64,000 nt of DNA from Patescibacteria group bacterium UBA6220 (GTDB taxonomy: Bacteria > Patescibacteriota > Minisyncoccia > Minisyncoccales > Minisyncoccaceae): contig DISC01000006.1 in the NCBI GenBank assembly GCA_002421745.1, forward strand, positions 87,610 through 151,609, read 5' to 3'. The notes beneath the pieces were generated by a model. It did not search any database. It was not told where the DNA came from and saw only the letters and a list, made by a program, of their open reading frames with translations. Position 1 is the first letter of the stretch, and the number at the start of each line of letters is the position of its first letter. Made by a program: the position numbers and the translations under genes. Positions 30,089 to 47,600 of this stretch are shown piece by piece.

Positions 30089-30928
30089 TTAATAAATATT
30101 GTCATTTGCCCAGTCCCCTTTTTCGCATTTTTCCCAATCATAAACACTCTCGTTATTTATCAACCACTCGTGGCTACGCTGAATAACAATCCCACCAAAT
30201 ACTTTTTTATTACCTTGATTAACTAAATATTTTTGTAATGATTCGGCTTTAGCTTTTGTATATGTCTTACCATCACGATCTCCAACGTCTTTAACTTCAA
30301 GTAAACCAAGACGCCCATCTGAAAATTTAACCAAATAGTCAGGATAAAAAGTACTTATGCTTCCTGCATATTCATACTTAATGCCAAAATATTCCTGTTT
30401 ATTTTCACTATTCTTCCACCACCAATTTAATTTTGAACTATTTTTGTTCAACAAATCTTCAAATTCTCTTTCTGGTTTAGATCTGTCGATATTTAAATAG
30501 CATGGTTCGTAAACATATTTTTTAGCTTTTACGGTTTCGTCATCATATTCGTTATAAAATTGCTCTGGCTTAATATCAAAAGTATATCTTTGGTCACTCT
30601 CTTCTATACGCTAATGAACCTCTTTTTCTTTAACAATAACATACTGATCAATCGCTTTATTTAGAATATGCCCAAAATGGACTATATTCTTATTATTTAA
30701 AAACATCTTTTGCGTTAAAAGCGAAGGATCTTTCCAATGCTCAGCACCAAGAACTTTATTAAACCAAAGATAAATAGCTGTTTTAACTACTGGAACAGAA
30801 CGCTTAATATTTTTAAATGGTCCAAGGTTGTCTTTAATGAACTGCTCAAAGAAAACAGCTAAGTCATCAACAGCTACATTTAATTTAGCTAAATTATCGG
30901 CATCAATTTTACCTTCTAATTCATCAAA
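30089..30928 (-). pseudogene. 5'-truncated, nonsense-interrupted nuclease gene (PD-(D/E)xK C-terminal domain)
   Basis: The frame is open from 30928 with no start codon. An in-frame TAG lies at 30611-30613 (...KEKEVH*RIEESDQ...). The C-terminal part carries YPDYLVKFSDGRLGLLEVKD. Confidence 0.6.
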
Positions 30929-32745
30929 CTAACAGACCAGGAATTAACGATATTTTGTGTATTTACAACCCAGTCATCAGAGTTGCTAATACTATTTGCA
31001 CTTTCAGCAATATCGTTAATTAAATTTTTCAAACTATTGTGTGTGAATTTTTTATTCGCCTCACGGACTTGCCTGAGTGTTTTTAATAATTCAACAAATT
31101 GTTTTATTGTCAGTGGTGCAATTTTTTGCTTACTACCTTTATAACCAATGGTGTTGGCAATATAGAAAGTTTCAGCACTGTCAGTATGAATTGTTGGTGC
31201 GATGAAGATGCAATAAGCATTTAAATGTGAGTTTTCAAAATCACGTAAATGTCGCATAACTGGCTGTCCTTCATTAAACCATTGATCACGACCATTCAAC
31301 ATTGTAACTTCGCAGATCATATTAAAGTTATCATAAAAACATTCGATATCGGCCATGCCACCAGGGGCAGTGGATGTTGGTTCGTTATCATCTCCGACTG
31401 GATAATTAGGCTTAATTTCCTTTGCGTCATTAAGAGCATGAAGTCCCATTGTTGAGAGATATTCGAGCATTAAAGCACGGTTTTCAAATTCAAAAATGCC
31501 CTCCAGTTGCTCAATGTACTGAGTAATTGATGAAACTGGTTGAGACTTGATGTGGTTATCTTTTTCTTGTAATTCTTTGCGAGATTCTCGTAAATCATTA
31601 ATATACAACACTAAATCATTTTCAGACATTACTGATATGTCCTTCTCGCTTTCAATCACTAAACCAAGATTGCTCTGTAGTTCAATTACATCTTTATAGA
31701 CATCACTAGCGATTTTCGATAATTTATCCTTTGTTTGCCAAGGCAATATAGGCAAATTGTCGTCAGACATATAGGAAACATATTCGTTTCTATCTGCAAA
31801 ATGCTTTGGTTTATAAAATTCGCTTTCAAATAAAGCTTCGATCTCAGTACTGCGGTTTAACTCCAAATCAATGTAAAAACCATTGCCACGAATACGGATA
31901 AACTTTGTTAGACGAAAATACCTAATTGCATTATCTCCATAATCCTTCAGGTTTGTGAGCAGTTTATTGATTGCAGCCTGTTTGCTTGTGCCTAAAAAGT
32001 TGGCTGCAAATTGTTTACGATAATCATCCCGAATCTTTTTTCGTTCCTGTTTTGTTTTTCCCTTTTGCAAGGCTCGTAATTCAACAATTTGTTTTGCATA
32101 ATTTTCAATATCTGTATACTTAACTAATGATGGAACGAATAATGAAAACTCTCGTTTACTAATTCCAGCTGCATTATTTCCATTCTCGGTTTCAATCCTA
32201 TTGACTTCGTTTATTAACTTAAGGGTTGCAACAAAAGGCACAACATTATAATCACCCTTATCCGTAAAATCATTACTAGCTGGGTTTGGTATCTGCCATT
32301 TTATAAAAGACCTTAGAAATACATCACCAGCGTCTTTTTCGCTAGCTATAAGCTTCTTCCCAAGATCGGTTATTTTAACTATGCCATTATCTATAATTAC
32401 AAATCCAAATTTTGTAAGAGGATTTATAGATTGACGACCACGCATTGCAAAGTCAGTATAGTTCTTTAACCTTATAATTTCATCTATCGTATCGTCATCA
32501 ATCTCACTATCGGTATCATTTATCAATTTTATAATATATGTTGTTAGCCCATTATAAAATTGAGCACTACCGAAACCATATAGACGATTCTTGATTAAAA
32601 GTTTCTGATAATTTTCCTGATTGGCTTTGTCCCAAGTTTTATTTTCAAGGGGTTTTAGGGCAACCAAAAAATCCCTCAGACGCTCTGGGTTTCTAACGGT
32701 TGTTGTAATTGACCATGCTTTCAACATAATTTCAGTATGCCACAA
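30916..32745 (-). CDS. AlwI-family type IIS restriction endonuclease
   Basis: 609 aa. N-terminus WSITTTVRNPERLRDFL, then INPLTKFGFV...ITDLGKKL, FLRSFIKWQIP, DNAIRYFRLT, and catalytic region MADIECFYDNFNMICEVT. These match my recollection of BstNBI/MlyI/PleI/AlwI-type enzymes. Confidence 0.65.
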   Translation of the reverse strand: MWHTEIMLKAWSITTTVRNPERLRDFLVALKPLENKTWDKANQENYQKLLIKNRLYGFGSAQFYNGLTTYIIKLINDTDSEIDDDTIDEIIRLKNYTDFAMRGRQSINPLTKFGFVIIDNGIVKITDLGKKLIASEKDAGDVFLRSFIKWQIPNPASNDFTDKGDYNVVPFVATLKLINEVNRIETENGNNAAGISKREFSLFVPSLVKYTDIENYAKQIVELRALQKGKTKQERKKIRDDYRKQFAANFLGTSKQAAINKLLTNLKDYGDNAIRYFRLTKFIRIRGNGFYIDLELNRSTEIEALFESEFYKPKHFADRNEYVSYMSDDNLPILPWQTKDKLSKIASDVYKDVIELQSNLGLVIESEKDISVMSENDLVLYINDLRESRKELQEKDNHIKSQPVSSITQYIEQLEGIFEFENRALMLEYLSTMGLHALNDAKEIKPNYPVGDDNEPTSTAPGGMADIECFYDNFNMICEVTMLNGRDQWFNEGQPVMRHLRDFENSHLNAYCIFIAPTIHTDSAETFYIANTIGYKGSKQKIAPLTIKQFVELLKTLRQVREANKKFTHNSLKNLINDIAESANSISNSDDWVVNTQNIVNSWSVSLMN

Positions 32746-32748
32746 AAA

Positions 32749-34737
32749 TCAGTAATTTGTAATAAGCACCTCTATTGTACTATTGTTTTTTGCAGTAGAG
32801 TGATAATTTGAATTTTTGTAGTTATAGCTTAATTTATGAACTCTATAACCATTCTTTTTTGCCCAATTCTTCATTATTTCATTAATCTTGCCTTTATGCT
32901 CTAAGACATTTGATAGAGCAAACCTAATCTCTTTCTTATCCAGTCTCGTTAAAAGTGCATATAAGTCCTTTTCATCCTTCTCCGTCCATCCTCCCATTTC
33001 GTTATAACTAGCAAGTCCTAGTAAATATGGTGGATCCAGATATACAAAATCATCATTTTTTAATGACATCTTTTCAACATCACGAAAATCGTAATTTTTG
33101 AATACTATTCTTTTCTCATTTGATATTTGATTGAAAGCTGCAACGTTTTTCCTTGAGCTTCCATTGTAGTCCCGTTTTCCTACTGGTAAATTAAAATCAC
33201 CATTGGAATTAAATCTAATTTGATTATTGAAAGAATATAAAACAAGCACCAACAACAAATCGATTCTTGTTTTTTCTTTATTAAATTCACCACGAAGCTT
33301 TAGGAAAGCACTTTTATTATATTGTCCAAGACCAGATGAACTATCAACATTGTAATGCTCATAGCCCTTTATATAGCTTTGACTTAATCCAAAATCATCT
33401 ATGATATCAATAACTCTTTGATTCAAATCTTCAAAATTATCATCTTGTATTAACTTCAATAAGTTCACTACATATCGATTTTTTTCAATGCAAACTATAT
33501 TTTTTGCTGTAGCATTAATTCCGACATTTGCACCACCAGAAAAAACATCATAAAAAGTTTTTATGTCTTTTGGGAATAGTTTTGCTATTTGTGGTAAAAG
33601 TTTATGTTTTCCACCTGTATAGTTTAGGGGGGATTTCACAAAGCCAACTTGGACAGGGTTATTTTTTGAAGCAATTACAGACTTGTTGCTTTTAGAAACA
33701 ATACTCACCTTACACAGAAATATACGCTCTTTCAGGTCGTCTTTGCTTGATTTTCCAGTAGTAAATTGCTTAAAATTGGTCTCAAAAATCTTCACTTCAC
33801 CTCGCCGTTTTAATGCAGACAAAATTTCATGATCACTGATACGGGATTGCGATCGAGCATTGCCAGCAGTCCCCATATCGTTATAAGAAACAAGGATATA
33901 TTTTGCATTAATGTTGTCTATCAAATCGCCGAATGCAACACCTGCTGATTTCATGTTGTATTTGCTTTTGATATGGGAGCGGTCAATCTTTTTTGCAACA
34001 CCAAAAACCTTTTCTTTTTTCCAAGTAGCGATGTTTTCTAGTAAATGATAAGCATCCGAGTATTGTCTAGAATTATATGGGGGGTCAATATAAACAACGT
34101 CTGCTTTTATTTTTTTTACCAATTCATTAGCGTCATCTTTATAAATTTCAGCAGAATAGCGAGAGTTTGTTATATCAAGGGGGAGTAGGAACAGTTTTTT
34201 ATTTGGAATATCAATTTTTCGATATGCGTCATAATGGCCGACCGTGTTGGCAATTTTATCAAATGCGTAAATCAGAGATGTTAGTAAATAAGATTTTTCT
34301 CTATTGGTAATTATTTTTTCTTCAAATAACTTTTCGATGTCATCCCTTATAATTCCTATCTTTTTAGCATTTTCTGCGTCAAAATAAGTATCTGAAAAGT
34401 TTTTTGAAAAATAATTTTCACCGTATTTTTTTATTTCAATGTCGTTATAGTACCTTAATTGTTCTTTTAACTTTCCTTCCCTGATTGAGTCCTTTCCAAA
34501 AAAAGCTGTATATACATGAGAATTTGAATCTAAAATATCATTTACAATAATCTTTGATCGATTATAAAAATGATTAGCAACAGTGCCAGTTCCAGCAAAA
34601 ATATCTGCAAAAGAATTAAACTCTATATTCTCAGCTTCAAGTATGCTATCTATAAATGATAACAGCTTGGTTTTAGAACCAAGATAGCGTCTTTGAGTTA
34701 TACAGATTTTTTTATTTCCAAAATATGCATCGTTCAT
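32749..34737 (-). CDS. Fused double N6-adenine DNA methyltransferase
   Basis: Two complete MTase halves. First: RRYLGSKTKLL, FADIFAGTGT, YIDPPY. Second: NYTGGKHKLLPQI, FYDVFSGGANVG, YLDPPY. It lies 3 nt upstream of the endonuclease gene. Confidence 0.85.
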   Translation of the reverse strand: MNDAYFGNKKICITQRRYLGSKTKLLSFIDSILEAENIEFNSFADIFAGTGTVANHFYNRSKIIVNDILDSNSHVYTAFFGKDSIREGKLKEQLRYYNDIEIKKYGENYFSKNFSDTYFDAENAKKIGIIRDDIEKLFEEKIITNREKSYLLTSLIYAFDKIANTVGHYDAYRKIDIPNKKLFLLPLDITNSRYSAEIYKDDANELVKKIKADVVYIDPPYNSRQYSDAYHLLENIATWKKEKVFGVAKKIDRSHIKSKYNMKSAGVAFGDLIDNINAKYILVSYNDMGTAGNARSQSRISDHEILSALKRRGEVKIFETNFKQFTTGKSSKDDLKERIFLCKVSIVSKSNKSVIASKNNPVQVGFVKSPLNYTGGKHKLLPQIAKLFPKDIKTFYDVFSGGANVGINATAKNIVCIEKNRYVVNLLKLIQDDNFEDLNQRVIDIIDDFGLSQSYIKGYEHYNVDSSSGLGQYNKSAFLKLRGEFNKEKTRIDLLLVLVLYSFNNQIRFNSNGDFNLPVGKRDYNGSSRKNVAAFNQISNEKRIVFKNYDFRDVEKMSLKNDDFVYLDPPYLLGLASYNEMGGWTEKDEKDLYALLTRLDKKEIRFALSNVLEHKGKINEIMKNWAKKNGYRVHKLSYNYKNSNYHSTAKNNSTIEVLITNY

Positions 34738-34825
34738 ATTTACAGAATAGCATAATTTTGTAATTTATGTAAATTTACTAGAAGGGTTAATAAGTAATAA
34801 ATTCTGGTCGAAATGTATTAACAAA

Positions 34826-34856
34826 AGAGACCGGCCCCTGACGGGAACCGGTCTCT
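34826..34856 (-). terminator. Strong GC hairpin plus TTTGTT; probably the original tRNA-Asn terminator
   Basis: 9-bp stem agagaccgg/ccggtctct. It lies just 3' (minus sense) of the displaced tRNA-Asn 3' fragment. Confidence 0.55.
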
Positions 34857-34894
34857 TAGAATCCCTCACTATTTGACTCCGGTGGTAGGATTCG
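34837..34894 (-). repeat. Displaced copy of the tRNA-Asn 3' end plus 3' flank (direct repeat DR2, distal copy)
   Basis: Aligns to 47488-47546 with about 6 mismatches and 1 indel. Includes tgactccggtggtaggattcg versus tggctccggtggtaggattcg in the tRNA. Confidence 0.75.
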
Positions 34895-34951
34895 CCTCCA
34901 TCTGCTGGTGCAGATGAAAACCTCCGCCCCTCATCGGGGATGCGGCCCGCG
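34895..34951. other. 57-nt GC-rich structured insert inside the displaced tRNA T-loop
   Basis: Flanked by duplicated ATTCG (34890-34894 and 34952-34956). Hairpins catctgc-tggt-gcagatg and ccgc..ccc-tcatc-ggg..gcgg. Far more GC-rich than the surroundings. Confidence 0.5.
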
Positions 34952-34971
34952 ATTCGAATCCTACTTCTTTC

Positions 34972-35009
34972 ACAGAAACAAAACAAAAGACACCCACTTT
35001 GAGGTGTCT
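34972..35009 (-). terminator. Rho-independent terminator (minus strand)
   Basis: Stem agacacc/ggtgtct followed on the minus strand by ttttgttttgttt. It lies directly 3' (minus sense) of DR1b. Confidence 0.6.
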
Positions 35010-35015
35010 ATTCGT

Positions 35016-35117
35016 TTTGGCTCCCGTGTACGGTCTGGTGCCCCACATAGGCAATAACCGTAAGGGTTAATTGAGTTATGTTTCTAGTATACCACACAGG
35101 TAACCGGTCGGGTAGCT
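35016..35117. repeat. ~102-bp direct repeat DR1, copy b
   Basis: See 29065-29166. Confidence 0.85.
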
Positions 35118-35219
35118 TTAAGAAAAATGAGACAAATTAGACACCATAAAAAGGAAATGTCTCGTGTCTCAAAATAATAAGAATGAGGAAAAACATATAC
35201 ACATAAAGCAAAAAGTTAA

Positions 35220-35921
35220 TTAATCTATAATTAATTCTTCCTTTTCAATATCTTTCTTTAATAGATTTATCCCCTTCCAGGCTATTGGATGACATCTTTT
35301 TATATGATCTTTTTCTTTGCAAAAGCAAGGCGTATGCCCCTTAATGTACGACTTTCTCTGTAATGCATTTTTAATGTACGGCCAAACAGTCTTATCGTGC
35401 TTTAATTTTGCTATACACTCCCCAGCTTTCTTGCTGTTATAAAATTTAGCGTAAGACTCTAGAATACCCACAATGCCATGCGCATATTCATCCCACGGCC
35501 ATGCGTTTTTGAGAGAAAAAAATTCTTGCCCATATAGAAAAGGAATAACTAGTCGTTGGAAAAAATCTACAAACTTAAATCCTGGTTTTAGAAACTCTTC
35601 CTCCTCAAGGGGATTACAAAGACACGCCGTTTTGTCGGATTGATTAATATGGCGATCGGGTATTGTATCTATGTTTTTCACGCAAAGCGCCGGAAGTTCC
35701 GAAAATGACTTATCGATTCTTTCCTTTATAATAATTTCGAATCTGCCATTTAGTATCGTGCCTCCAATTGTATTACTCGTTCCGCCTTCAATAATCAAAA
35801 ATTCGTTAGTCTTATCATTATAGGCGGCTGTAAATTCTAAAGTTCCGGAAACTACACCGTGGTCTTCTTTCAGTCCCGGATACTTTTGAGCCAACCATTC
35901 TTTATCCTGATTAGTCAACAT
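35220..35921 (-). CDS. Cys-rich protein with SEC-C-type zinc motif and a possible UBC/E2-like core
   Basis: ATG at 35921, 1 nt after the MBL gene stop. C-terminal CFCKEKDHIKRCH fits C-x-C-x8-C-H (SEC-C pattern). ELPALCVKNIDTIPDRHINQSDKTACLC resembles the E2 signature P..P.v.f....HPN....G.iCL. Confidence 0.55.
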   Translation of the reverse strand: MLTNQDKEWLAQKYPGLKEDHGVVSGTLEFTAAYNDKTNEFLIIEGGTSNTIGGTILNGRFEIIIKERIDKSFSELPALCVKNIDTIPDRHINQSDKTACLCNPLEEEEFLKPGFKFVDFFQRLVIPFLYGQEFFSLKNAWPWDEYAHGIVGILESYAKFYNSKKAGECIAKLKHDKTVWPYIKNALQRKSYIKGHTPCFCKEKDHIKRCHPIAWKGINLLKKDIEKEELIID

Positions 35922-35922
35922 A

Positions 35923-36960
35923 CTACAATGAACACCAAGGCGATTTGGGAGAAAAAGGCTTCGGCGAAGAGAACCCCTCATTTCTCAGAGATGACGTCTT
36001 AGCTGATTTATCATCCTTATCACCATTATAAATCTTTAAACTGCCACCGGCGTCGATATCGACAATAATGCTTTTTTCATCTTCTCCTAAATGGTAGGTA
36101 TTTTCTTTGCTGACGTAATCTTCATATAGCTCCAACGCCTCATCATCCGGATGGTCATGTGGGCTATCTTCTTGCTTTGGAGCGCTTATTATCAAATAAT
36201 CTGGCTTTATATTATCCATGTGATCGAGATAAACATCGTCGTCTTCCTTTTCTTTATCCTTGAAGAAAGAAACTGATCCATGGTGGGACGCGCTCAAAAC
36301 ATCGCTCTTCAAATCATCTTTATAATAATCAGTTATGTGCTCCTTCCATGCTGCTTTGTCAGAATCTCCAGTTAGAAGTATGCTTTTGTCTTTATAGATA
36401 AATTTAATAACTCCGCATTGTTCGTGTATTCTTTTAGCTCTTTGGTCGGGTGTTTCGTCATCTATCTCTTCACAGACATATTTCGCTGGCGACAATACTT
36501 GAAAATCAATATCGCCGATTTTTCTATCGGTCTTAGATTTCTCCTCTTTGTCAGTATGTAGAACATTCTTATCATTACTGCCTCTCAAATAAAAAACATT
36601 AGAATCGCCGACTTTCTTAATAACCTCATTCAATTCCTTAAATGCGTCCTCATGCTCTTTTCCTGGTGTGTGTCCAGAATGCCAAACCTCACTAATACAA
36701 TCTTTGATTTCCTTGACCCCGGCAATGTGGTCTTTGTGGGGGTGGGTATTAACAAAAATAATGTCGTCTCTATCTATTTCTTTGAAAATCAAAGGAATAT
36801 CCTCGATCAATTCGTCATCTTTCTTATAGTTAGAATCGACTAGTAAATACCTGTGTGAATCTCCATCGGGAACAATCATCAAGGTAGACTCACCCTGACC
36901 AACATACAAGAATATTGTCCTGAAAATTCCCTTATCTGGGAAGAATATATCTTTTTCCAT
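35923..36960 (-). CDS. Stand-alone ComEC-like metallo-beta-lactamase-fold hydrolase
   Basis: VGQGESTLMIVP, THPHKDHIAG (HxHxDH) and SASHHGS motifs, as in the ComEC C-terminal MBL domain. Confidence 0.75.
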   Translation of the reverse strand: MEKDIFFPDKGIFRTIFLYVGQGESTLMIVPDGDSHRYLLVDSNYKKDDELIEDIPLIFKEIDRDDIIFVNTHPHKDHIAGVKEIKDCISEVWHSGHTPGKEHEDAFKELNEVIKKVGDSNVFYLRGSNDKNVLHTDKEEKSKTDRKIGDIDFQVLSPAKYVCEEIDDETPDQRAKRIHEQCGVIKFIYKDKSILLTGDSDKAAWKEHITDYYKDDLKSDVLSASHHGSVSFFKDKEKEDDDVYLDHMDNIKPDYLIISAPKQEDSPHDHPDDEALELYEDYVSKENTYHLGEDEKSIIVDIDAGGSLKIYNGDKDDKSAKTSSLRNEGFSSPKPFSPKSPWCSL

Positions 36961-36961
36961 A

Positions 36962-37555
36962 TTATTTGTTAGTTATGTTTAATAAAAAAGTCTGCAAAGT
37001 TTTACCTCTCGAATAATTGTAAAACCTTTTTGATCTATTATAAAAAAGCCAAGTTAAGATAACGGATAAAATAAACAATGAAAGGTAACTAAAAGAAAAC
37101 CAATGAATAATACTGAGAATTAACATGGAAATAGAATTTAATCCGAACACTATCATCCACCCCCTATACAGACTGTAGTAAGCGTTGAAAGACTGAACCT
37201 GACCGGTAATGTCTTTCGCAGAAGAAGACATATAACACAGAGAGTAAACTTCTCCCCAGGTCTGTTTTGTCACATTAAAATAAGCACTAGCTCTCTCGAG
37301 AATCTCTTTTTCCGAATCGGAAAAATTAACTTTATTCTCTTTTACAAAAATATTTGAAATAGCTTGCAAAACATGACCAAATAAGTAGGCAACGATAACC
37401 CACAATAAAGAATTATCTAGATTGAAAAAGGGAATTATGTAAATTACTCCGAATAAATAGAAGCTTAAAGATAAAACCATTAAACCAACGCTTCCAACCA
37501 TTAGATATCCTATCTGGTCATAAATATTAAATTTTGAAAAAATTGTATTATCCAT
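36962..37555 (-). CDS. 4-TM membrane protein (2 TM + ~70 aa loop + 2 TM)
   Basis: 197 aa with hydrophobic pairs at both ends. Only 1-2 nt gaps to the flanking genes. Confidence 0.55.
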   Translation of the reverse strand: MDNTIFSKFNIYDQIGYLMVGSVGLMVLSLSFYLFGVIYIIPFFNLDNSLLWVIVAYLFGHVLQAISNIFVKENKVNFSDSEKEILERASAYFNVTKQTWGEVYSLCYMSSSAKDITGQVQSFNAYYSLYRGWMIVFGLNSISMLILSIIHWFSFSYLSLFILSVILTWLFYNRSKRFYNYSRGKTLQTFLLNITNK

Positions 37556-37557
37556 AA

Positions 37558-37797
37558 TTAGTATTTTGTATCTTTAACTGATTTTGGATCATTGCCAGGT
37601 TTAACAGTGTCACTATCTCTAATCGGACCATCGGGCCTATGAATTCTTACCTCTCCGCCACCGCTATTAGCAGACATTTCTTTTGCTGCTTTTTCTGCTT
37701 CCGCTTGGGTATTATAATACCCAGCAACGCGCTCTGCCCCCTCCTTCTTTGCGAACCAATCGCCTTCTTTATTTTTCATAACGTGATAATTTGCCAT
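37558..37797 (-). CDS. DUF2188-like small protein
   Basis: MANYHVMKNKEGDWFAKKEGAERVAGYYNTQAEAEKAAKEM pattern. Confidence 0.6.
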   Translation of the reverse strand: MANYHVMKNKEGDWFAKKEGAERVAGYYNTQAEAEKAAKEMSANSGGGEVRIHRPDGPIRDSDTVKPGNDPKSVKDTKY

Positions 37798-37803
37798 ATG
37801 TTT

Positions 37804-38433
37804 TTACTTTAATTTATTTTTAATAATATCTTTGACTATTCCACAAAATATTACCTCATCTTGCCCCATTAAATAAATGGGCTTGTGGATTGGATTCGAG
37901 GAGCTTGGATCTAAATAATAAAGCCCCTCGCTTGTCCGCCTAAAATACTTAACGGTCGCTTCGCTGCCAATTAGAACTACGGCCTTTTCTCCGATATTAG
38001 GCATGGAATTCTGTTTTTTAATTAATAGTAAATCTGAATCATTTATGCCGGCTTTATCCATGCTATCTCCTCTAGCTCTCAAAAAGAAATAGTCCTGCGT
38101 ACCACCAGTTAAATTACCGGCCATATACGGTATATATCCCTGAATATCTTCAACCGCTATATTAGGACTTCCGCAAGCAACCTCCCCAATTAAGGGAATA
38201 CTAAATATCTTCCTAGCAACATCTTTGAAAAATGCTGATAACTTCAATCCTGCTCCTTTTTCTTGTGAAAGGTACCCTTTCTTTTTTAAGGCATTAACAT
38301 GGACCTGGATAGAGCTGGTGGTCTTATATCCCAAACGTTCCCTGACTTCCTCATAAGTTGGTATTTTGCTCGTTTTAGCGTATATATCCTTAATAACGTT
38401 CAAAACTTCCTTTTGTTTACTTGTAATATCCAT
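37804..38433 (-). CDS. LexA/CI-like S24 autopeptidase repressor
   Basis: N-terminal wHTH. Linker IPLIGEVACGSP. Catalytic RGDSM Ser and downstream Lys (EATVKYF). 209 aa. Confidence 0.8.
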   Translation of the reverse strand: MDITSKQKEVLNVIKDIYAKTSKIPTYEEVRERLGYKTTSSIQVHVNALKKKGYLSQEKGAGLKLSAFFKDVARKIFSIPLIGEVACGSPNIAVEDIQGYIPYMAGNLTGGTQDYFFLRARGDSMDKAGINDSDLLLIKKQNSMPNIGEKAVVLIGSEATVKYFRRTSEGLYYLDPSSSNPIHKPIYLMGQDEVIFCGIVKDIIKNKLK

Positions 38434-38472
38434 GGTTTTTTGATATGATATGTATAATCTTTACTTTATTAG

Positions 38473-38501
38473 AGTATACACGAAAACTTATTATCCGTCA
38501 A
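38473..38501 (-). promoter_or_regulatory. Sigma-70-type promoter for the repressor operon
   Basis: Minus-strand TTGACG (38501-38496), exact 17-nt spacer, TATACT (38478-38473). Palindrome TACTTTATTAGAGTA (38462-38476) overlaps the -10. A plus-strand TATAAT lies at 38453-38458. Confidence 0.55.
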
Positions 38502-38519
38502 GCCCTAAATTGACTTCAT

Positions 38520-39413: not shown

Positions 39414-40748
39414 ATGAAACAAAATATAAAAATAGTAAAAGTTTCTATTGATAAGCTTCGCGCGTCTTCATATAATCCTCGCAGGCTTACCACAGAGCAA
39501 GAAAAACATCTAACTGAAAGCATTGTTCGCTTCGGATTGGTAGACCCAATTATAGTCAATAAACATCCAGGCCGAGAATTTATTGTGATCGGAGGGCATA
39601 TGCGCCTAAGAATAGCTAAAAAGCTCGGCTACAAGGAAGCCCCTGTCGTTTTCCTAGATTTAATAGAAAGCAAAGAGCGAGAACTAAATATCAGATTAAA
39701 TTCTAATTTGGGAGAGTTTGATTTTAATCTTCTTAAGAATTTTGGAGAAGAATTTTTAGCTGATATTGGTTTCTCAAGCGAATCACTTGATCAGATATTT
39801 GAAATAGAAAACACACCAGAGGAATTTAATCTTGAAAAAGAATTAAAGAAGCTTGATATCAAAAATATAGAAGTCAGAAAAGGAGACGTTTATCAGCTTG
39901 GCGACTCAAAATTAAAATGTGGCGATTCAACTATCGAAGAAGATATCATAGATTTAATGGGTGGCGAGAAAGCAAATATGTGTTTTACTGATCCGCCTTA
40001 TATATTAGATTATCTCCACGGCAAGAGCAGGAATGGCAAAGCAACCGAAGGATTCGGTTTAAAGAAAAATAGAAAATATCTTGAAACTGACTTTATTCCA
40101 GATAATTTCTCTGATTTATGGATGGCAAATATTGCCAAAGTGCAAAAGCCTGATTTCTCTATTATTATATTCGAACATCCTAAAAATCTTCGAACCATAT
40201 GGAATGCTCTTGAAAAACATTGGAGATATAGAAATACCATAACATGGCATGTTCCTAATAGAGTTCAAGGATTTTCAGCTAAGTATAAATTTTTTAATAA
40301 GGCGGATATAGCGCTGGTCGGAAGCTCTGGCAACATAAAATTAAACATAGCCCCAGAACCAAACGAATTATTCCAGAATGAATACGAAAATGCAATTTAT
40401 GCCACATCCGGCAAGCCACATTGGGAAGGTTACGAAAAAGGGAAGAAGATGTGCCCTACCGATTTTATAGAGCATATCGCTGCTGATGAAAAATCTTCGG
40501 GGCAAGGCATTATTTTCGGAACAAAACCCCTCGAGCTTCTTATCCCTTATATCAAAGTACTAACTAAGCGAAATGACTTAATCATTGAGCCATTTGGCGG
40601 ATCGGGGTCGACACTAATAGCGGCCACTAAAATGAAGCGCCGTTGTTACATTATGGAGAAATCGCCAGTCTACGCTGAAGTCATCATGAAGCGATGGGAG
40701 AAATTAACAGGATTAAATAGAAAAAAGCATGAAAAACGACAAAAATAA
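39414..40748 (+). CDS. ParB-like nuclease domain fused to an N6/N4 DNA methyltransferase
   Basis: N-terminus NPRRLT...IIVNK...VIGGHMRLRIAKKLG (ParB/Srx). MTase motif IV FTDPPY and motif I EPFGGSGST. Confidence 0.8.
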   Translation: MKQNIKIVKVSIDKLRASSYNPRRLTTEQEKHLTESIVRFGLVDPIIVNKHPGREFIVIGGHMRLRIAKKLGYKEAPVVFLDLIESKERELNIRLNSNLGEFDFNLLKNFGEEFLADIGFSSESLDQIFEIENTPEEFNLEKELKKLDIKNIEVRKGDVYQLGDSKLKCGDSTIEEDIIDLMGGEKANMCFTDPPYILDYLHGKSRNGKATEGFGLKKNRKYLETDFIPDNFSDLWMANIAKVQKPDFSIIIFEHPKNLRTIWNALEKHWRYRNTITWHVPNRVQGFSAKYKFFNKADIALVGSSGNIKLNIAPEPNELFQNEYENAIYATSGKPHWEGYEKGKKMCPTDFIEHIAADEKSSGQGIIFGTKPLELLIPYIKVLTKRNDLIIEPFGGSGSTLIAATKMKRRCYIMEKSPVYAEVIMKRWEKLTGLNRKKHEKRQK

Positions 40749-42594: not shown

Positions 42595-44046
42595 TTACTG
42601 ACGCGTAAGAGTAATATTAACTACTGGTTGTGTATTATTAGCTCCTGGAGTGTCCGTGACAACCTCTACCCCATCTGCCCCTATATATCTTGCGTAATTA
42701 TTCGTAAGCTGGAAAGTTATTCCCTCAGCAGGAATATTATTAGGGCTTCCGAAATCAAGCTCTACGGTTTGCAATCTGCTACTATATGCATCGACTTTTC
42801 CGCCAATATCTTTGGTTATTGTATTGTTGTTTGCATTTTTAATGATGGATGAGGCGTTTGGTGAAATTGTAAATCTTGCCTCTTCTGGCTCAATATCATT
42901 CTCGAGTGCGGAAACTTTAAATCTTACTAGCATGGCTTGGCCATCGCTACTTACTTTTTGTTCTATAGAAGAAGGCCCGTCCACAGAAATCATTAAAATA
43001 CCTGGAGTTTTAATGTATACTGATTTTTCTGTTTGTACGCCATTCGCAATGCATTTTAACTTAAATGTAATTGGCGAGCTAATAACGACGTCCTTATTTC
43101 CGTCGGAGGCGACGACTTGGTCATTCGCTGTGCATTGTAATGCTTCTCCAGTTGCAACTGTAGCCGTCCAAGCTAATTTTACAGTGCTGTTAGGCTTTAC
43201 TATAAAAGAATCTACCTCATTACCGTTAGTTTTAATAGAGATTGCTGGAATTGCGGATACAACTTTCACAGCGGTTGTTTTACTCATCGAAGATCCGTCG
43301 GTTGATCCGCATATAAGAGTATATGAATAATCTCCCGCTTTCGTATATTGAAGCTTTTCTGATCCGTTTGCATTTTTAACTCCACTCCAATTTCCTGAGG
43401 CTACGCAGTTTGTAATATTTTGCGAATGCCATGATAGGTTTGCATACGTAGGACCGTTAAGTACTACTGTTGGCACTTGGTCGAAATAAAGACTGGCAGA
43501 GGAGGTAGCACTTGTTGCTGGTGTATCCACTGTTTCAGAAGTTGAGGATTGGGTTGTTTGCTGTGGCTGTTGAGTATTTTGAGTTTGCTGTTGGATTACT
43601 GACTGTGATTGCTGGCTATTTTGTTTTTGGCTGTTTAATAGTTTTTGTAATAAAGCTATTAAATTTTCCCTAGAAATATCACCGGTTGTCGATGATGTTG
43701 TAGCTATCGGAGTAGTTGTTCCAGTTTCGGTAGTAGCCTGTTGATTAGAAGATTGTAGATTTTTAGCTAAAATATCGTTAACTTTTTGCCTTGAAAGACT
43801 TCCAAAGTAGCCTGTTGATGGCAAGCTATTTGCAGTTTGAAACTTTTTAACAGCTGACAATGTAAGAGAATAATAATTACCAGTAGCTTCTCCAGTTAAA
43901 TATCCCTGATCAATTAGGAATTCTTGTAATTCCTTAACCTGTGAATCGTTTTGTAAACCATAGGAAAGATTTTTATCTATAGAGGCACTTACAAACATAA
44001 TGGGTGCAAGCAAGAATAACGATAAGATAATATTTATTTTTTTCAT
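42595..44046 (-). CDS. Secreted peptidoglycan-binding-domain protein with Q-rich linker and Ig-like repeats
   Basis: Signal peptide from the ATG at 44046 (MKKINIILSLFLLAPIMFVSA). PG_binding_1-like VKELQEFLIDQGYL...AVKKFQ. Confidence 0.65.
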   Translation of the reverse strand: MKKINIILSLFLLAPIMFVSASIDKNLSYGLQNDSQVKELQEFLIDQGYLTGEATGNYYSLTLSAVKKFQTANSLPSTGYFGSLSRQKVNDILAKNLQSSNQQATTETGTTTPIATTSSTTGDISRENLIALLQKLLNSQKQNSQQSQSVIQQQTQNTQQPQQTTQSSTSETVDTPATSATSSASLYFDQVPTVVLNGPTYANLSWHSQNITNCVASGNWSGVKNANGSEKLQYTKAGDYSYTLICGSTDGSSMSKTTAVKVVSAIPAISIKTNGNEVDSFIVKPNSTVKLAWTATVATGEALQCTANDQVVASDGNKDVVISSPITFKLKCIANGVQTEKSVYIKTPGILMISVDGPSSIEQKVSSDGQAMLVRFKVSALENDIEPEEARFTISPNASSIIKNANNNTITKDIGGKVDAYSSRLQTVELDFGSPNNIPAEGITFQLTNNYARYIGADGVEVVTDTPGANNTQPVVNITLTRQ

Positions 44047-44388
44047 ATTTTTAAAATAGTTAATAAATTGACAGATTATGTCGACAAATAATCCTTCCTG
44101 TGGCGTTTTATATACAAAAAGCCCACCACAGGTAGTGACCGAAGCCACTCATACCGGTTTCCCGATATGGCGATCAAGCGACCCCATGATGGGTTCTTTA
44201 TTCTTGATCGACTTTTGACCATGCCCTTGAAATTCAAAGGTTTAGGCCTGCTATTAAATTGTGATTACATAATAGCTCAAAAGCTAAAAATTGTGTAGTC
44301 TTTCAGTCTCCAGTTTGTCTACATCTAGGGTCTGGACTTCCTTGCCATATTGCGACATCTGTATAGGTAAGAGAATAAAAGACAAAAT

Positions 44389-45664: not shown

Positions 45665-47272
45665 TTATAAGTCTATATGTTCTATCGGAGTTGCGGTGTA
45701 CCCAACGACTTCGTCCGCTTCTGCAAAACTTTTAGATCCAGTAGCGATAACCCCAACAACCTCATTTTTGTTATTAAGCAACGGACTCCCACTCATCCCT
45801 CCTGTAAAAGGCTTATCTAATACAATTCTGGGAAGATAAAATCTTTCTTTGAAAGAAACTACTTTTGTTTCATAGAAAAAAGGTTCTTTGTTCGAATACA
45901 ATAAAGGAAATCCTATACCCAACAAAGAATCTCTTTTATTTACTTGATTATTGCTTTTTTTAAATTCCGGGAATCTAATACCTTCTTCAAATTGTAGAAT
46001 AGCTAAATCAATGCCAAATCTATTCCTTAAAAGATGGAGAGGGTATTTTTTACTAGGATTTTTTGGTCTATATGCAATAATTTTACCACCAATTCCAATA
46101 ACATGAGAACATGTTATCATTCCATATCCCTCCAATAAAAACCCCGTTCCCTGTTCCCAATCATTTACCTCTATAATCCAAATATATTCTTCTAAGGTTT
46201 TATTTTCATTAAGCTCAAGTTCGGGGAAACCATTTTTTGCTATGCTATTATATTTATTAATTAATTTCTTATAAATATTGTCTCTACTTCCTCTTACCAT
46301 TCTTACGAAATTAATTTTTCCTAATATTACCTGCTCAAAATTCCCGTCCGTTTTGTATGGACTTTTATCTTTATTTTTTCTACATAAAAAATACTCTGAT
46401 TTAGATTTTTCGATCCCATAATGCTCCCAATTATATAACATAACTCTAATCTCTCTAATATAATCCCTTTTGATGTTCGGAAATTTATTAGTAGTTAGTC
46501 CAGTAACTTCTTGTCTCGCTGAAGGAAACGACATCCTCGTCTTTGCTCTATTGATCGAAAACCAATTAGAAGCAATAATTGCTTCTAAGTCTTTTCCCAG
46601 AATAATACTTGATCTCTCTACGGTGGCAATATTTTTAGGAAAATTACCGTTCCAGCTAGAAAAAGTTATATCATCAGCATATCGCGTGTAAAGAATGTTA
46701 TTTTTGTTAGCTAGTTTTTGCATTTGTCCATCCAATCTAGAACAAATCAAGTTAGAAATAATTGGAGATGTCGGCGCTCCTTGAGGTAACTCATTGTTTA
46801 GCGTACAAATTTGTGCTAAAACTGCTGCAACTTTTTTAGGCAAACTAAATGGCTCAGAAGTGAAAAGTCCCATAACTCTAGGAAAAGTTATCGATGGAAA
46901 AAAATTTTCTAAATCAAAATTAAGAACAACCTTTTTACCACAATGAACAGCGGCATTTGTCACAATGCTTTTATCCTTACAAAATCCATGTACCGACGGT
47001 CTTAATCTGGATCCATAAACTAAACTTAAAACCACTGATAATTTTTGCTGTATAATTTTTAAAGAAGTAATTGGGGTGCGTATAGTCCTGGTACCTCCTG
47101 ATTTCTTTTTTATTTCAAAAGATTTATAATTTAATTCTATCTTTTTACCATAAATCAAATAAAGCAAAGTCTTTTTATTAACATCTAGTAGCTCACAAAA
47201 AGCATCAATATTATTGAGTTTTAAAAATTTATCCAATAATTGACTAGCGTTAAATTTTAATTCTTTATCCAT
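45665..47272 (-). CDS. Retron-type reverse transcriptase fused to a C-terminal trypsin-like serine protease
   Basis: KKSGGTRTIRTP, NAAVH, LNFDLENFFPSI, LPQGAPTSPIISN, YADD, NRAKT, VTGLTT. Then protease His (TCSHVIG), Asp (DLAIL) and Ser (GGMSGSPLLN). ATG at 47272 with an AAGGA RBS is preferred over the TTG at 47314. Confidence 0.8.
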   Translation of the reverse strand: MDKELKFNASQLLDKFLKLNNIDAFCELLDVNKKTLLYLIYGKKIELNYKSFEIKKKSGGTRTIRTPITSLKIIQQKLSVVLSLVYGSRLRPSVHGFCKDKSIVTNAAVHCGKKVVLNFDLENFFPSITFPRVMGLFTSEPFSLPKKVAAVLAQICTLNNELPQGAPTSPIISNLICSRLDGQMQKLANKNNILYTRYADDITFSSWNGNFPKNIATVERSSIILGKDLEAIIASNWFSINRAKTRMSFPSARQEVTGLTTNKFPNIKRDYIREIRVMLYNWEHYGIEKSKSEYFLCRKNKDKSPYKTDGNFEQVILGKINFVRMVRGSRDNIYKKLINKYNSIAKNGFPELELNENKTLEEYIWIIEVNDWEQGTGFLLEGYGMITCSHVIGIGGKIIAYRPKNPSKKYPLHLLRNRFGIDLAILQFEEGIRFPEFKKSNNQVNKRDSLLGIGFPLLYSNKEPFFYETKVVSFKERFYLPRIVLDKPFTGGMSGSPLLNNKNEVVGVIATGSKSFAEADEVVGYTATPIEHIDL

Positions 47273-47282
47273 ATTTTCCTTA

Positions 47283-47423
47283 AAAAGAGAGCCCGCAGAG
47301 TTCTCCCTTTGCAAAAGCGGTCATACTATTACAACACGGTAATAACATGAAGGGGCACTAAAGTAAACCGTTTACTATTCTATTGCGAAACACAATAGCA
47401 ATCAAATCGCAGAGCTCTCTTTT
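47283..47423 (-). ncRNA. Candidate retron msr/msd non-coding RNA
   Basis: 10-bp inverted repeat AAAAGAGAGC (47423-47414, minus sense) / GCTCTCTTTT (47292-47283) encloses about 120 nt with three hairpins (47380-47398, 47363-47375, 47327-47344). It lies immediately upstream of the RT start. Confidence 0.4.
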
Positions 47424-47487: not shown

Positions 47488-47546
47488 ACCTGACGGTAAC
47501 CGGTCTCTCAGAACCCCTCACTGGTTGGCTCCGGTGGTAGGATTCG
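47488..47546 (-). repeat. Direct repeat DR2, proximal copy (tRNA-Asn 3' end plus 38-nt flank)
   Basis: Aligns with 34837-34894. Confidence 0.75.
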
Positions 47547-47600
47547 AACCTACAACCTAATGCTTAACAGGCATCCGCGCTACCATTGCGCCACACCGGA
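47526..47600 (-). tRNA. tRNA-Asn (anticodon GTT), CCA encoded
   Basis: Manual cloverleaf fold: acceptor TCCGGTG/CACCGGA; D stem GCGC/GCGC; anticodon stem GATGC/GCATT with loop CTGTTAA; T arm GTAGG-TTCGAAT-CCTAC; discriminator G then CCA. 75 nt. Confidence 0.9.

Follow-up and report, generated by a model that had tools for sequence, protein, structure and literature searches.

Does the five-gene operon at positions 35220-38433 of a patescibacterial contig represent a defence system of an undescribed kind, or a variant of one that already has a name? The contig is DISC01000006.1 of Patescibacteria group bacterium UBA6220 (GCA_002421745.1), and the window referred to throughout is the whole stretch of 64,000 nucleotides of it that was analysed. 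An original prediction for this locus, made from the sequence alone, described a LexA/CI-like repressor, a DUF2188 protein, a four-transmembrane (4-TM) protein, a metallo-beta-lactamase (MBL) hydrolase of ComEC type and a SEC-C/E2-like protein as a candidate prophage-borne system. From sequence homology and gene synteny, we conclude that the operon is an E2-only (short) relative of the named anti-phage system 6A-MBL, and not an undescribed category. We further propose, with a probability of roughly 0.6, that it is a damage-inducible module directed against mobile elements (anti-phage), in which the E2 would act on the C-terminal tail of the MBL, and the MBL would be the effector nuclease with the 4-TM protein as its partner. 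The five minus-strand open reading frames (ORFs) lie where the original prediction had placed them:

37804-38433, minus strand: LexA-like self-cleaving repressor (winged helix-turn-helix (HTH) plus S24 peptidase), ORF of 209 amino acids (aa)
37558-37797, minus strand: DUF2188 small protein, defence-associated, ORF of 79 aa
36962-37555, minus strand: 4-TM protein, ORF of 197 aa
35923-36960, minus strand: stand-alone ComEC-type MBL hydrolase, predicted nuclease, ORF of 345 aa
35220-35921, minus strand: E2-like Cys-rich protein, E2-only, with a C-terminal zinc motif, ORF of 233 aa

Their packing is as tight as had been described (1-6 nt), with intergenic gaps of 6, 2, 1 and 1 nt, and the identical five-gene arrangement was found again on independent assemblies. 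Alignments of homologues favoured the start of the last gene at 35921 over an overlapping start at 35981 and, for the TM gene, the start that gives a protein of 197 aa.

The relationship to 6A-MBL is seen in the genes that accompany the MBL. Of the 216 relatives that a metagenome scan with an MBL alignment returned, 80 were retained; with the loci added by exact protein look-up, the sample comprised 80 unique MBLs (loci carry L numbers below). The MBL is followed by an E2-E1-JAB protein of about 780 aa in 59 of the 80, and by an E2 alone in ten (the window, L025, L028, L039-L043, L049 and L107). The pairing of an MBL with E2-E1-JAB corresponds to operon type 6a of Iyer, Burroughs & Aravind (2006), and the anti-phage system 6A-MBL is modelled in NCBIfam as two genes, NF058523 (6A-MBL_cap2_3) and NF058524 (6A-MBL_enzyme). 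A review and a 2025 preprint count 6A-MBL among the confirmed defence systems, the validated system being from P. aeruginosa. The view that the combination of genes was unlike any named system is thus superseded, since an MBL with E2(-E1-JAB) is type 6a, now named 6A-MBL, and the E2 falls in families modelled as CBASS (cyclic oligonucleotide-based antiphage signalling system) E2 proteins. Conservation of the gene neighbourhood, which had been proposed as a check, was borne out: TM protein, MBL and E2-type protein are syntenic across phyla. The assignment to a defence-type module also stands, the module being conserved, mobile and multi-gene, with phage-derived genes, the genes of a retron-type reverse transcriptase (RT) and an AlwI restriction-modification pair as its neighbours.

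Besides the ComEC-type MBL family, the window operon has in common with 6A-MBL a TM partner, located up- or downstream in many loci, a C-terminal MBL tail that co-varies with the ubiquitin-like partner, and a mobile defence-island setting with, in some loci, DNA-damage-type regulators at the head. It differs in that its partner protein is a stand-alone E2 of 233 aa with a zinc motif and without E1 (ThiF) or JAB, in that its tail ends in PW(CSL) instead of ..D.KPMG, and in that its proteins remain far short of the NCBIfam equivalog cutoffs; in addition, LexA-like repressors are a usual feature of E2-only loci but seldom accompany E2-E1-JAB. Because the window MBL scores 46 bits against 6A-MBL_enzyme, where the cutoff is 220, we regard it as belonging to a sister clade and not as an equivalog. 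With most of the family members sampled, among them those that precede E2-E1-JAB, it shares 46-59% identity. The proteins of locus L030 reach 160 bits with 6A-MBL_cap2_3 and 56 bits with 6A-MBL_enzyme, both below the cutoffs. Tail and partner go together throughout the sample: KPMG-type tails were found in 58 of the 59 E2-E1-JAB loci and in none of the ten E2-only loci (p=3e-11), which have RPY (eight) or PW (two) tails, classes that were assigned by regular expression except for L040 (SRPYFPNAN) and L025, which were assigned by eye.

By its sequence, the last gene of the operon encodes a ubiquitin-conjugating-enzyme-like E2. Its product matches the PADLOC models of CBASS E2 proteins over nearly its full length (best E-value 1.3e-28), and the family comprises 1,707 representatives (50% clustering, E<=1e-3). 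Residues H91, C100, C199, C201 and H211 are invariant, as is the motif His91-x-Asn...Cys100, and C210 is kept in at least 90%. Of the earlier label SEC-C/E2-like, the E2-like part was upheld by the PADLOC models and the Cys-rich motif CxC-x8-CH proved invariant or nearly so; the Pfam SEC-C domain was absent at E<=0.1. The homologue in Runella carries the RefSeq name "SEC-C domain-containing protein". In the AlphaFold2 (AF2) model (predicted local distance difference test score, pLDDT, 89), a helix is followed by a four-stranded meander, a loop with Cys100 and further helices, a layout resembled by that of the characterised SmE2, in which C101 is the catalytic Cys (PMC12948482). A sequence search of the PDB with the E2 profile gave no match. 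In a search for E2-partner fusions (Rosetta stone), the 150 best of the 1,707 representatives were nearly all stand-alone proteins of approximately 230-260 aa. The window operon contains no match to ThiF (E1) or JAB, in contrast to L030 and L121, which have ThiF and Prok-JAB.

What such a lone E2 might act upon is indicated by the company that it keeps elsewhere. A genome scan anchored on the E2 yielded 24 loci in Patescibacteria, Acidobacteriota, Bacteroidota and one gammaproteobacterium, all 24 with an enzyme gene immediately 5' of the E2. This gene encodes a ThsB-like TIR protein in 16 loci (Pfam ThsB_TIR 1.5e-26), four of which also contain a SIR2-SLOG ThsA, and a putative CD-NTase (a nucleotidyltransferase resembling cGAS and DncV) in the other eight, with a SAVED or patatin effector upstream in six of these (the E2-CBASS loci L007, L010, L015, L020, L022 and L024). 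A C-terminal tail of the form [FILY].P..[PQ][WH] was present on all 24 E2 partners as opposed to one of 598 other ORFs of the same loci (p=2e-42), its usual form being GF.P[KR][SA]PW[CS]. The window MBL ends in ...PFSPKSPWCSL, and, combined with the 24 partner tails, this suggests that one E2 subfamily is joined through one kind of tail to three unrelated enzymes.

A direct comparison of two loci points in the same direction. The window and L025 are 85% identical in DNA sequence over the TM gene and the body of the MBL gene (window 37556-36026), and 86% identity resumes just past the E2 stop codon (35171-35100), although the E2 genes differ. Between 36026 and 35171, over the MBL tail and the E2 gene, no DNA similarity was found. 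L025 has an RPY tail and an E2 of a different subfamily (E=3e-19 to the window E2). Since the break in similarity spans both tail and E2, and the L025 pair differs in both, the two have been exchanged together. The segments concerned are the following:

35923-35970, minus strand: MBL tail-coding segment (F-S-P-K-S-P-W-C-S-L), predicted E2 recognition/ligation element, from motif co-variation
35172-36025, minus strand: tail-plus-E2 cassette, exchanged as a unit, from DNA comparison with L025

In the one E2-only system that has been characterised, SmE2 binds a C-terminal motif of CdnG, cuts off whatever follows a conserved Gly and, with no E1 involved, forms a covalent link to the C-terminus of CdnG; in the view of the authors, the E2 works as a protease in imitation of the ubiquitination cascade (PMC12948482). 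The window E2 matches the same PADLOC E2 models as the E2 of E2-CBASS, members of its subfamily follow CD-NTases, and in both systems a lone E2 occurs without E1 or JAB, the characterised SmE2 trimming and covalently binding the C-terminus of its partner. The window differs from E2-CBASS in that it has neither a CD-NTase nor an effector that senses cyclic nucleotides (SAVED, patatin), its partner enzyme being a hydrolase, in that the tail does not have the conserved terminal glycine of CdnG, and in that the E2 is longer (233 aa, with SmE2 given as 18 kD) and carries CxC-x8-CH. Thoeris with Cap2/Cap3 (10.64898/2025.12.03.692087) has the principle in common with the window E2 subfamily that a ubiquitin-like ancillary module is coupled, by way of a C-terminal tail, to another kind of immune enzyme; there, however, the module consists of Cap2 (E1-E2) and Cap3 with glycine tails, whereas here the E2 is alone, the tails are of PW type and the window enzyme is an MBL and not a TIR protein. 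It is possible, and we suggest it only tentatively, that tail and E2 form a portable, E1-independent conjugation module with non-glycine Pro-Trp/Pro-Tyr tails that has been plugged onto three unrelated immune enzymes (CD-NTase, ThsB-type TIR protein and ComEC-type MBL). In the window, a damage signal of the LexA type would then lead this module to activate a nuclease at the membrane, in effect a "split ComEC" directed at DNA that enters the cell. If this were true, both the chemistry of the portable module and the effector logic would be new to any described defence system. No description of an E2-only system with an MBL, or of the shared PW tail, was found in the literature searched, the reach of which did not include the main 2024 6A-MBL paper (van den Berg).

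The MBL itself was correctly described as a ComEC-type hydrolase. The motifs HxHxDH and HHGS, together with D199, are among the residues that are invariant across the family, and ComEC chains in the PDB match at 2e-8. Against TIGR00361 (ComEC_Rec2), the protein scores 35 bits (cutoff 190), the match covering the MBL part only, and the operon proteins contain neither the Pfam Competence nor the DUF4131 membrane domain of ComEC. The window resembles ComEC in its MBL subtype (HxHxDH...HHGS) and in that the MBL is paired with a membrane protein, and differs from it in the lack of the Competence/DUF4131 domain, in the division over separate polypeptides and in the mobile, defence-linked setting. 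A second, different MBL (~350-380 aa, with a weak Avs1a MBL match) is inserted upstream in L025 (4280-5392), L052, L065, L072, L090 and L114, a set in which the E2-only and the E2-E1-JAB form are both represented.

The call of four TM segments in the third protein was confirmed by hydropathy (residues 23-41, 49-67, 132-150 and 154-172) and by the AF2 model (pLDDT 90). The family has at least 145 homologues, with a conserved loop of ~60 aa between TM2 and TM3 and the invariant polar residues Y12, D13, H61, N68, C107, D115 and R131. Its profile matches 63 of 93 MBL loci, where the gene usually lies immediately 5' of the MBL or immediately 3' of the E2. The family also pairs with ComEC-type MBLs in loci without an E2 (L123, L118) and in a more distant 6a locus (L121), and the E2-less loci suggest a broader family of TM-plus-MBL effector pairs. 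L118 (3256-8095) contains GmrSD, a methyltransferase, two consecutive MBLs, the TM protein and a ResIII helicase-nuclease, and L123 (5001-6501) a HinfI restriction-modification system, the TM protein and an MBL of 299 aa, in both cases without an E2. A Foldseek search with the 4-TM model gave nothing significant; weak matches to MotA/ExbB/PomA recurred (E>=0.4) and were not relied upon. The protein has no Pfam Competence match. PADLOC matches to Csx27 and tm_4 (E-values 7e-4 and 0.03) were judged to be compositional, and an identity as Csx27/tm_4 was rejected. In some E2-only loci (L028 5534-5989; L041), a lamin-tail-domain (LTD) protein of 151 aa replaces the TM protein 5' of the MBL; LTD-annotated proteins that match the MBL were found on haloarchaeal plasmids.

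At the head of the operon, the LexA-like identity of the repressor was confirmed by Pfam LexA_DNA_bind (9e-12) and Peptidase_S24 (2e-20), and the protein scores 111.3 bits against TIGR00498 (lexA), with a cutoff of 110.95. In an alignment with E. coli LexA, its VAC|G falls on the cleavage site VAA-G, and its GDSM (Ser) and TVK (Lys) fall on GMSM and TVK of the catalytic dyad. The identity of the second protein was likewise verified (Pfam DUF2188, 8e-21); it matches the PADLOC candidate PDC-S16 at 2e-19, and in L001, L012 and L017 a DUF2188 gene comes after that of the S24 protein. Operons of type 6a and operons with DUF2188 have been reported under CapH/CapP-type DNA-damage regulators, and CapH/CapP and CapW are regulators of CBASS operons whose repression is lost on DNA damage (10.1101/2022.04.27.489752). 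Lau et al. depict a 6a operon as a hypothetical protein, a metallohydrolase and E2-E1-JAB under CapH/CapP control. What the window has in common with these systems is a defence operon that begins with a repressor gene whose product is lost when DNA is damaged, as is predicted for the window. In place of the pair of HTH and M78 proteins of CapH/CapP, however, the window has one self-cleaving LexA/S24 protein, predicted to be inducible. An S24 repressor was found in nine of ten E2-only loci as opposed to two of 59 E2-E1-JAB loci (p=9e-9), and, when only loci with at least 2.5 kb visible upstream are counted, in 6/7 as opposed to 1/31. In the Acidobacteriota E2-TIR modules (L002, L006, L008, L009, L016), an IrrE/ImmA M78 peptidase with a small adjoining gene upstream (CapP/CapH-like) takes the place of the LexA-like repressor, so that the same module is served by two different damage-sensing regulators. 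The original prediction had assumed rexAB-style expression in a lysogen. This was not supported, the repressor being of the LexA type with a Cys-Gly site and a Ser/Lys dyad. Such a protein is expected to repress its own gene and to be inactivated by damage or RecA, similar to what has been shown for CapH/CapP on CBASS and 6a operons.

The control region and the end of the operon contain the following candidate elements:

38473-38501, minus strand: promoter-like site TTGACG-17-TATACT, from consensus match
38451-38480: candidate operator, a 10-nt inverted repeat TGTATAATCT / AGAGTATACA with 10-nt spacing, which overlaps the -10 and contains the GTATAC palindrome
38497-38514: second candidate operator on weak evidence, a GTCAA-N8-TTGAC dyad that overlaps the -35 and adjoins the divergent gene start
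34988-35009, minus strand: first terminator-like hairpin 3' of the operon
34825-34857, minus strand: second terminator-like hairpin, stronger, 14 pairs

The near-consensus promoter claimed for the operon does exist, with 10 of 12 positions matching and as the best site of the region; the number of such sites, however, is at chance level (14 observed, 14.1 in shuffled sequence), and the site alone is therefore not beyond chance. The palindrome over the -10 was also found, as GTATAC within a 10-nt dyad with halves at 38451-60 and 38471-80. Across the S24-headed loci compared, no convincing conserved operator was detected, and the dyads of the window are not kept in related loci; repeats of the TGTCAA/TTGACA type recur 5' of the S24 genes in L007, L022 and L025, which provides weak support for the dyad at 38497-38514. 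Both strong minus-strand hairpins lie in a 480-nt non-coding stretch (34738-35219), and an Rfam scan of the gap after the operon (34650-35300) gave no credible match.

From these components, the following mechanism can be proposed. The LexA-like repressor would sit on the dyads of its own promoter and keep the expression of the operon low until RecA on single-stranded DNA, or phage-induced damage, leads to self-cleavage at Cys-Gly through the Ser/Lys dyad and thereby to derepression, both steps being suggested by motifs. The homology to SmE2-SmCdnG and the co-variation of tail and E2 are the grounds on which the E2 (His91-x-Asn, Cys100) is expected to recognise the MBL tail F-S-P-K-S-P-W. It may trim the tail and join the MBL C-terminus covalently to itself or to other targets, and so set the activity of the MBL, with neither E1 nor JAB peptidase involved; we infer that E2 and MBL of the window become covalently linked through the MBL C-terminus. 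The MBL has a complete binuclear metal site of the ComEC nuclease type and is taken to be the effector; with the fold and active site established by the analysis and the substrate assumed, it would act as a nuclease in concert with the partner that accompanies it most constantly, the 4-TM protein. The latter could anchor or gate the MBL at the membrane, or be a second, membrane-damaging effector. The DUF2188 protein would be an accessory protein that travels with the regulator.

Several observations weigh against this reading. A Foldseek search of the PDB with the E2 model gave no significant match, the best being UFC1 (E=0.75, probability 0.66), with a few E2/UEV structures at low rank. The proteins of the validated P. 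aeruginosa 6A-MBL are distant, as the bit score of the MBL indicates (46 of 220). In characterised E2-CBASS, the partners of the E2 end in a conserved Gly (PMC12948482), whereas the tails considered here end in Pro-Trp or Pro-Tyr, so that ligation may proceed by another chemistry or not take place at all. The promoter and the candidate operators are matches at the level of consensus, the operators are not kept between loci, and the substrate of the MBL is a presumed one. Finally, in the CBASS and Thoeris relatives the tail is found on the signal-making enzyme and the effector is encoded upstream, and by gene order the killer could be the 4-TM protein and not the MBL.

This last point leads to the rival explanation that survives best, which we nevertheless consider rather unlikely. 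In a signalling layout, the MBL would be a sensor or signal-making enzyme under control of the E2, and the 4-TM protein would kill the infected cell by disrupting its membrane. The gene orders are indeed parallel (LexA-(DUF2188)-small TM-TIR-E2 and LexA-HNH/SAVED-CD-NTase-E2 elsewhere, LexA-DUF2188-4TM-MBL-E2 in the window), and the seven invariant polar residues of the TM protein exceed what a passive anchor would need. The recurrent low-score matches to MotA/ExbB/PomA stator folds would fit a membrane effector, but at E>=0.4 they are not significant. Moreover, 6A-MBL is modelled as two genes, MBL and E2-E1-JAB, which implies that the MBL can be the output, and the pairing of the TM protein with ComEC-type MBLs that lack an E2 looks like an effector pair of TM protein and nuclease. 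To our knowledge, no enzyme of the MBL fold produces an immune second messenger, which also counts against this alternative.

A second rival, which we hold to be improbable, follows from the host element. Here the operon would be a maintenance or exclusion module of a phage-derived element (superinfection exclusion or addiction), co-expressed with the master repressor in the manner of rexAB. The gene order of the element is tRNA-Asn, retron-type RT-protease, serine integrase, endolysin-like gene, TerL, TerS-like gene, ParB-methyltransferase, the operon and the AlwI restriction-modification pair. The divergent phage-like operon that had been noted at the outset is real, consisting of ParB-methyltransferase, TerS-like protein and TerL (phrog_38, 2e-79), and divergence of the repressor from these genes is what such a module would show, as is the backbone of ParB-methyltransferase and serine recombinase beside the relatives L001, L018, L022, L024 and L028; the gaps of 1-6 nt imply co-transcription with the repressor. 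The location in a prophage has to be revised, however, to a location in a phage-derived element: no virion genes (capsid, portal, tail) were found in the window, and the E2 was encoded by none of the 50,697 phage genomes searched, in which the MBL had only distant matches (~25% identity); the MBL was found on one of 2.9 million IMG/VR contigs. Plasmids carry either form, E2-only or E2-E1-JAB, and the system is found on conjugative and other plasmids as well as in chromosomes without the ParB-methyltransferase backbone. A self-cleaving S24 repressor, furthermore, predicts induction and not steady expression in a lysogen.

That the operon is a housekeeping SOS or competence device, in which TM protein and MBL nuclease would form a split ComEC-like machinery for DNA uptake or processing governed by the LexA of the cell itself, is very improbable: the TIGR00498 score lies just at the cutoff, the MBL is of ComEC type and close relatives are named "competence protein ComEC" in public records, but the distribution is patchy and crosses phyla, cassettes are swapped, the genes are constantly found with E2 or E2-E1-JAB and with neighbours of restriction-modification or retron type, and the Competence/DUF4131 domains and a ComEC_Rec2 score near the cutoff (35 bits of 190) are lacking.

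The surroundings of the operon and of its relatives contain further genes of mobile and defence elements. The fusion of ParB with an N6/N4 methyltransferase (window 39414-40748), divergent from the S24 repressor and with a serine recombinase near, is the one that recurs in the five relatives named above, and the occurrence of the same backbone with differing defence cargo indicates a shared mobile backbone with an exchangeable cargo slot. At 45665-47314 on the minus strand, between the serine integrase and tRNA-Asn (47526-47600), lies a gene for a 549-aa retron-type RT fused to a trypsin-like protease (Pfam RVT_1 and Trypsin_2), which scores 373 bits with NCBIfam Retron_TIR_antiphage and 340 bits with retron Ec67, both under the cutoffs. 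A LOOT RNA motif (RF03000, 77 bits, gathering score 46) is located at 44134-44248 on the minus strand, at the 5' end of a PG_binding_1/endolysin-like ORF (42595-44148, minus strand), where it overlaps the listed GTG start by 15 nt in a leader-like manner. Directly downstream of the operon, at 30916-34737 on the minus strand, an AlwI-type IIS restriction endonuclease is encoded with a fused double D12 adenine methyltransferase. Beside relatives, restriction-modification pairs of the MvaI/BcnI or HinfI type were seen (L025, L123 and the Runella plasmid). This plasmid, pRUNSL03 of Runella slithyformis DSM 19594 (L125; NC_015694.1 33700-36151), is complete and from a cultured organism, and encodes an MBL (..NAKPWQRG), the E2-only "SEC-C domain-containing protein" and the TM protein, with two more MBLs and a serine protease next after the TM gene. 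On a plasmid of Paenibacillus polymyxa, the MBL (..KPMGGQ) is followed by E2-E1-JAB and then by the TM protein.

The E2-only form reduces 6A-MBL to an MBL, an E2 and a TM partner, which would allow a simpler reconstitution, and experiments are feasible with the cultured R. slithyformis DSM 19594 and its complete plasmid pRUNSL03, in spite of the uncultured nature of the window organism, a patescibacterium. The F.P..PW tail shared by three enzyme families, combined with the cassette swap, makes a direct and testable prediction of the target that the E2 recognises, and, with tails that do not end in glycine, one may ask in what way an aromatic C-terminus is dealt with by an E2 that has no E1. 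The 4-TM protein that is conserved as a partner of ComEC-type MBLs represents a so far unnamed component of such systems. For the family as a whole, these results suggest that lone bacterial E2 proteins are general plug-in regulators of immune enzymes, beyond CBASS.

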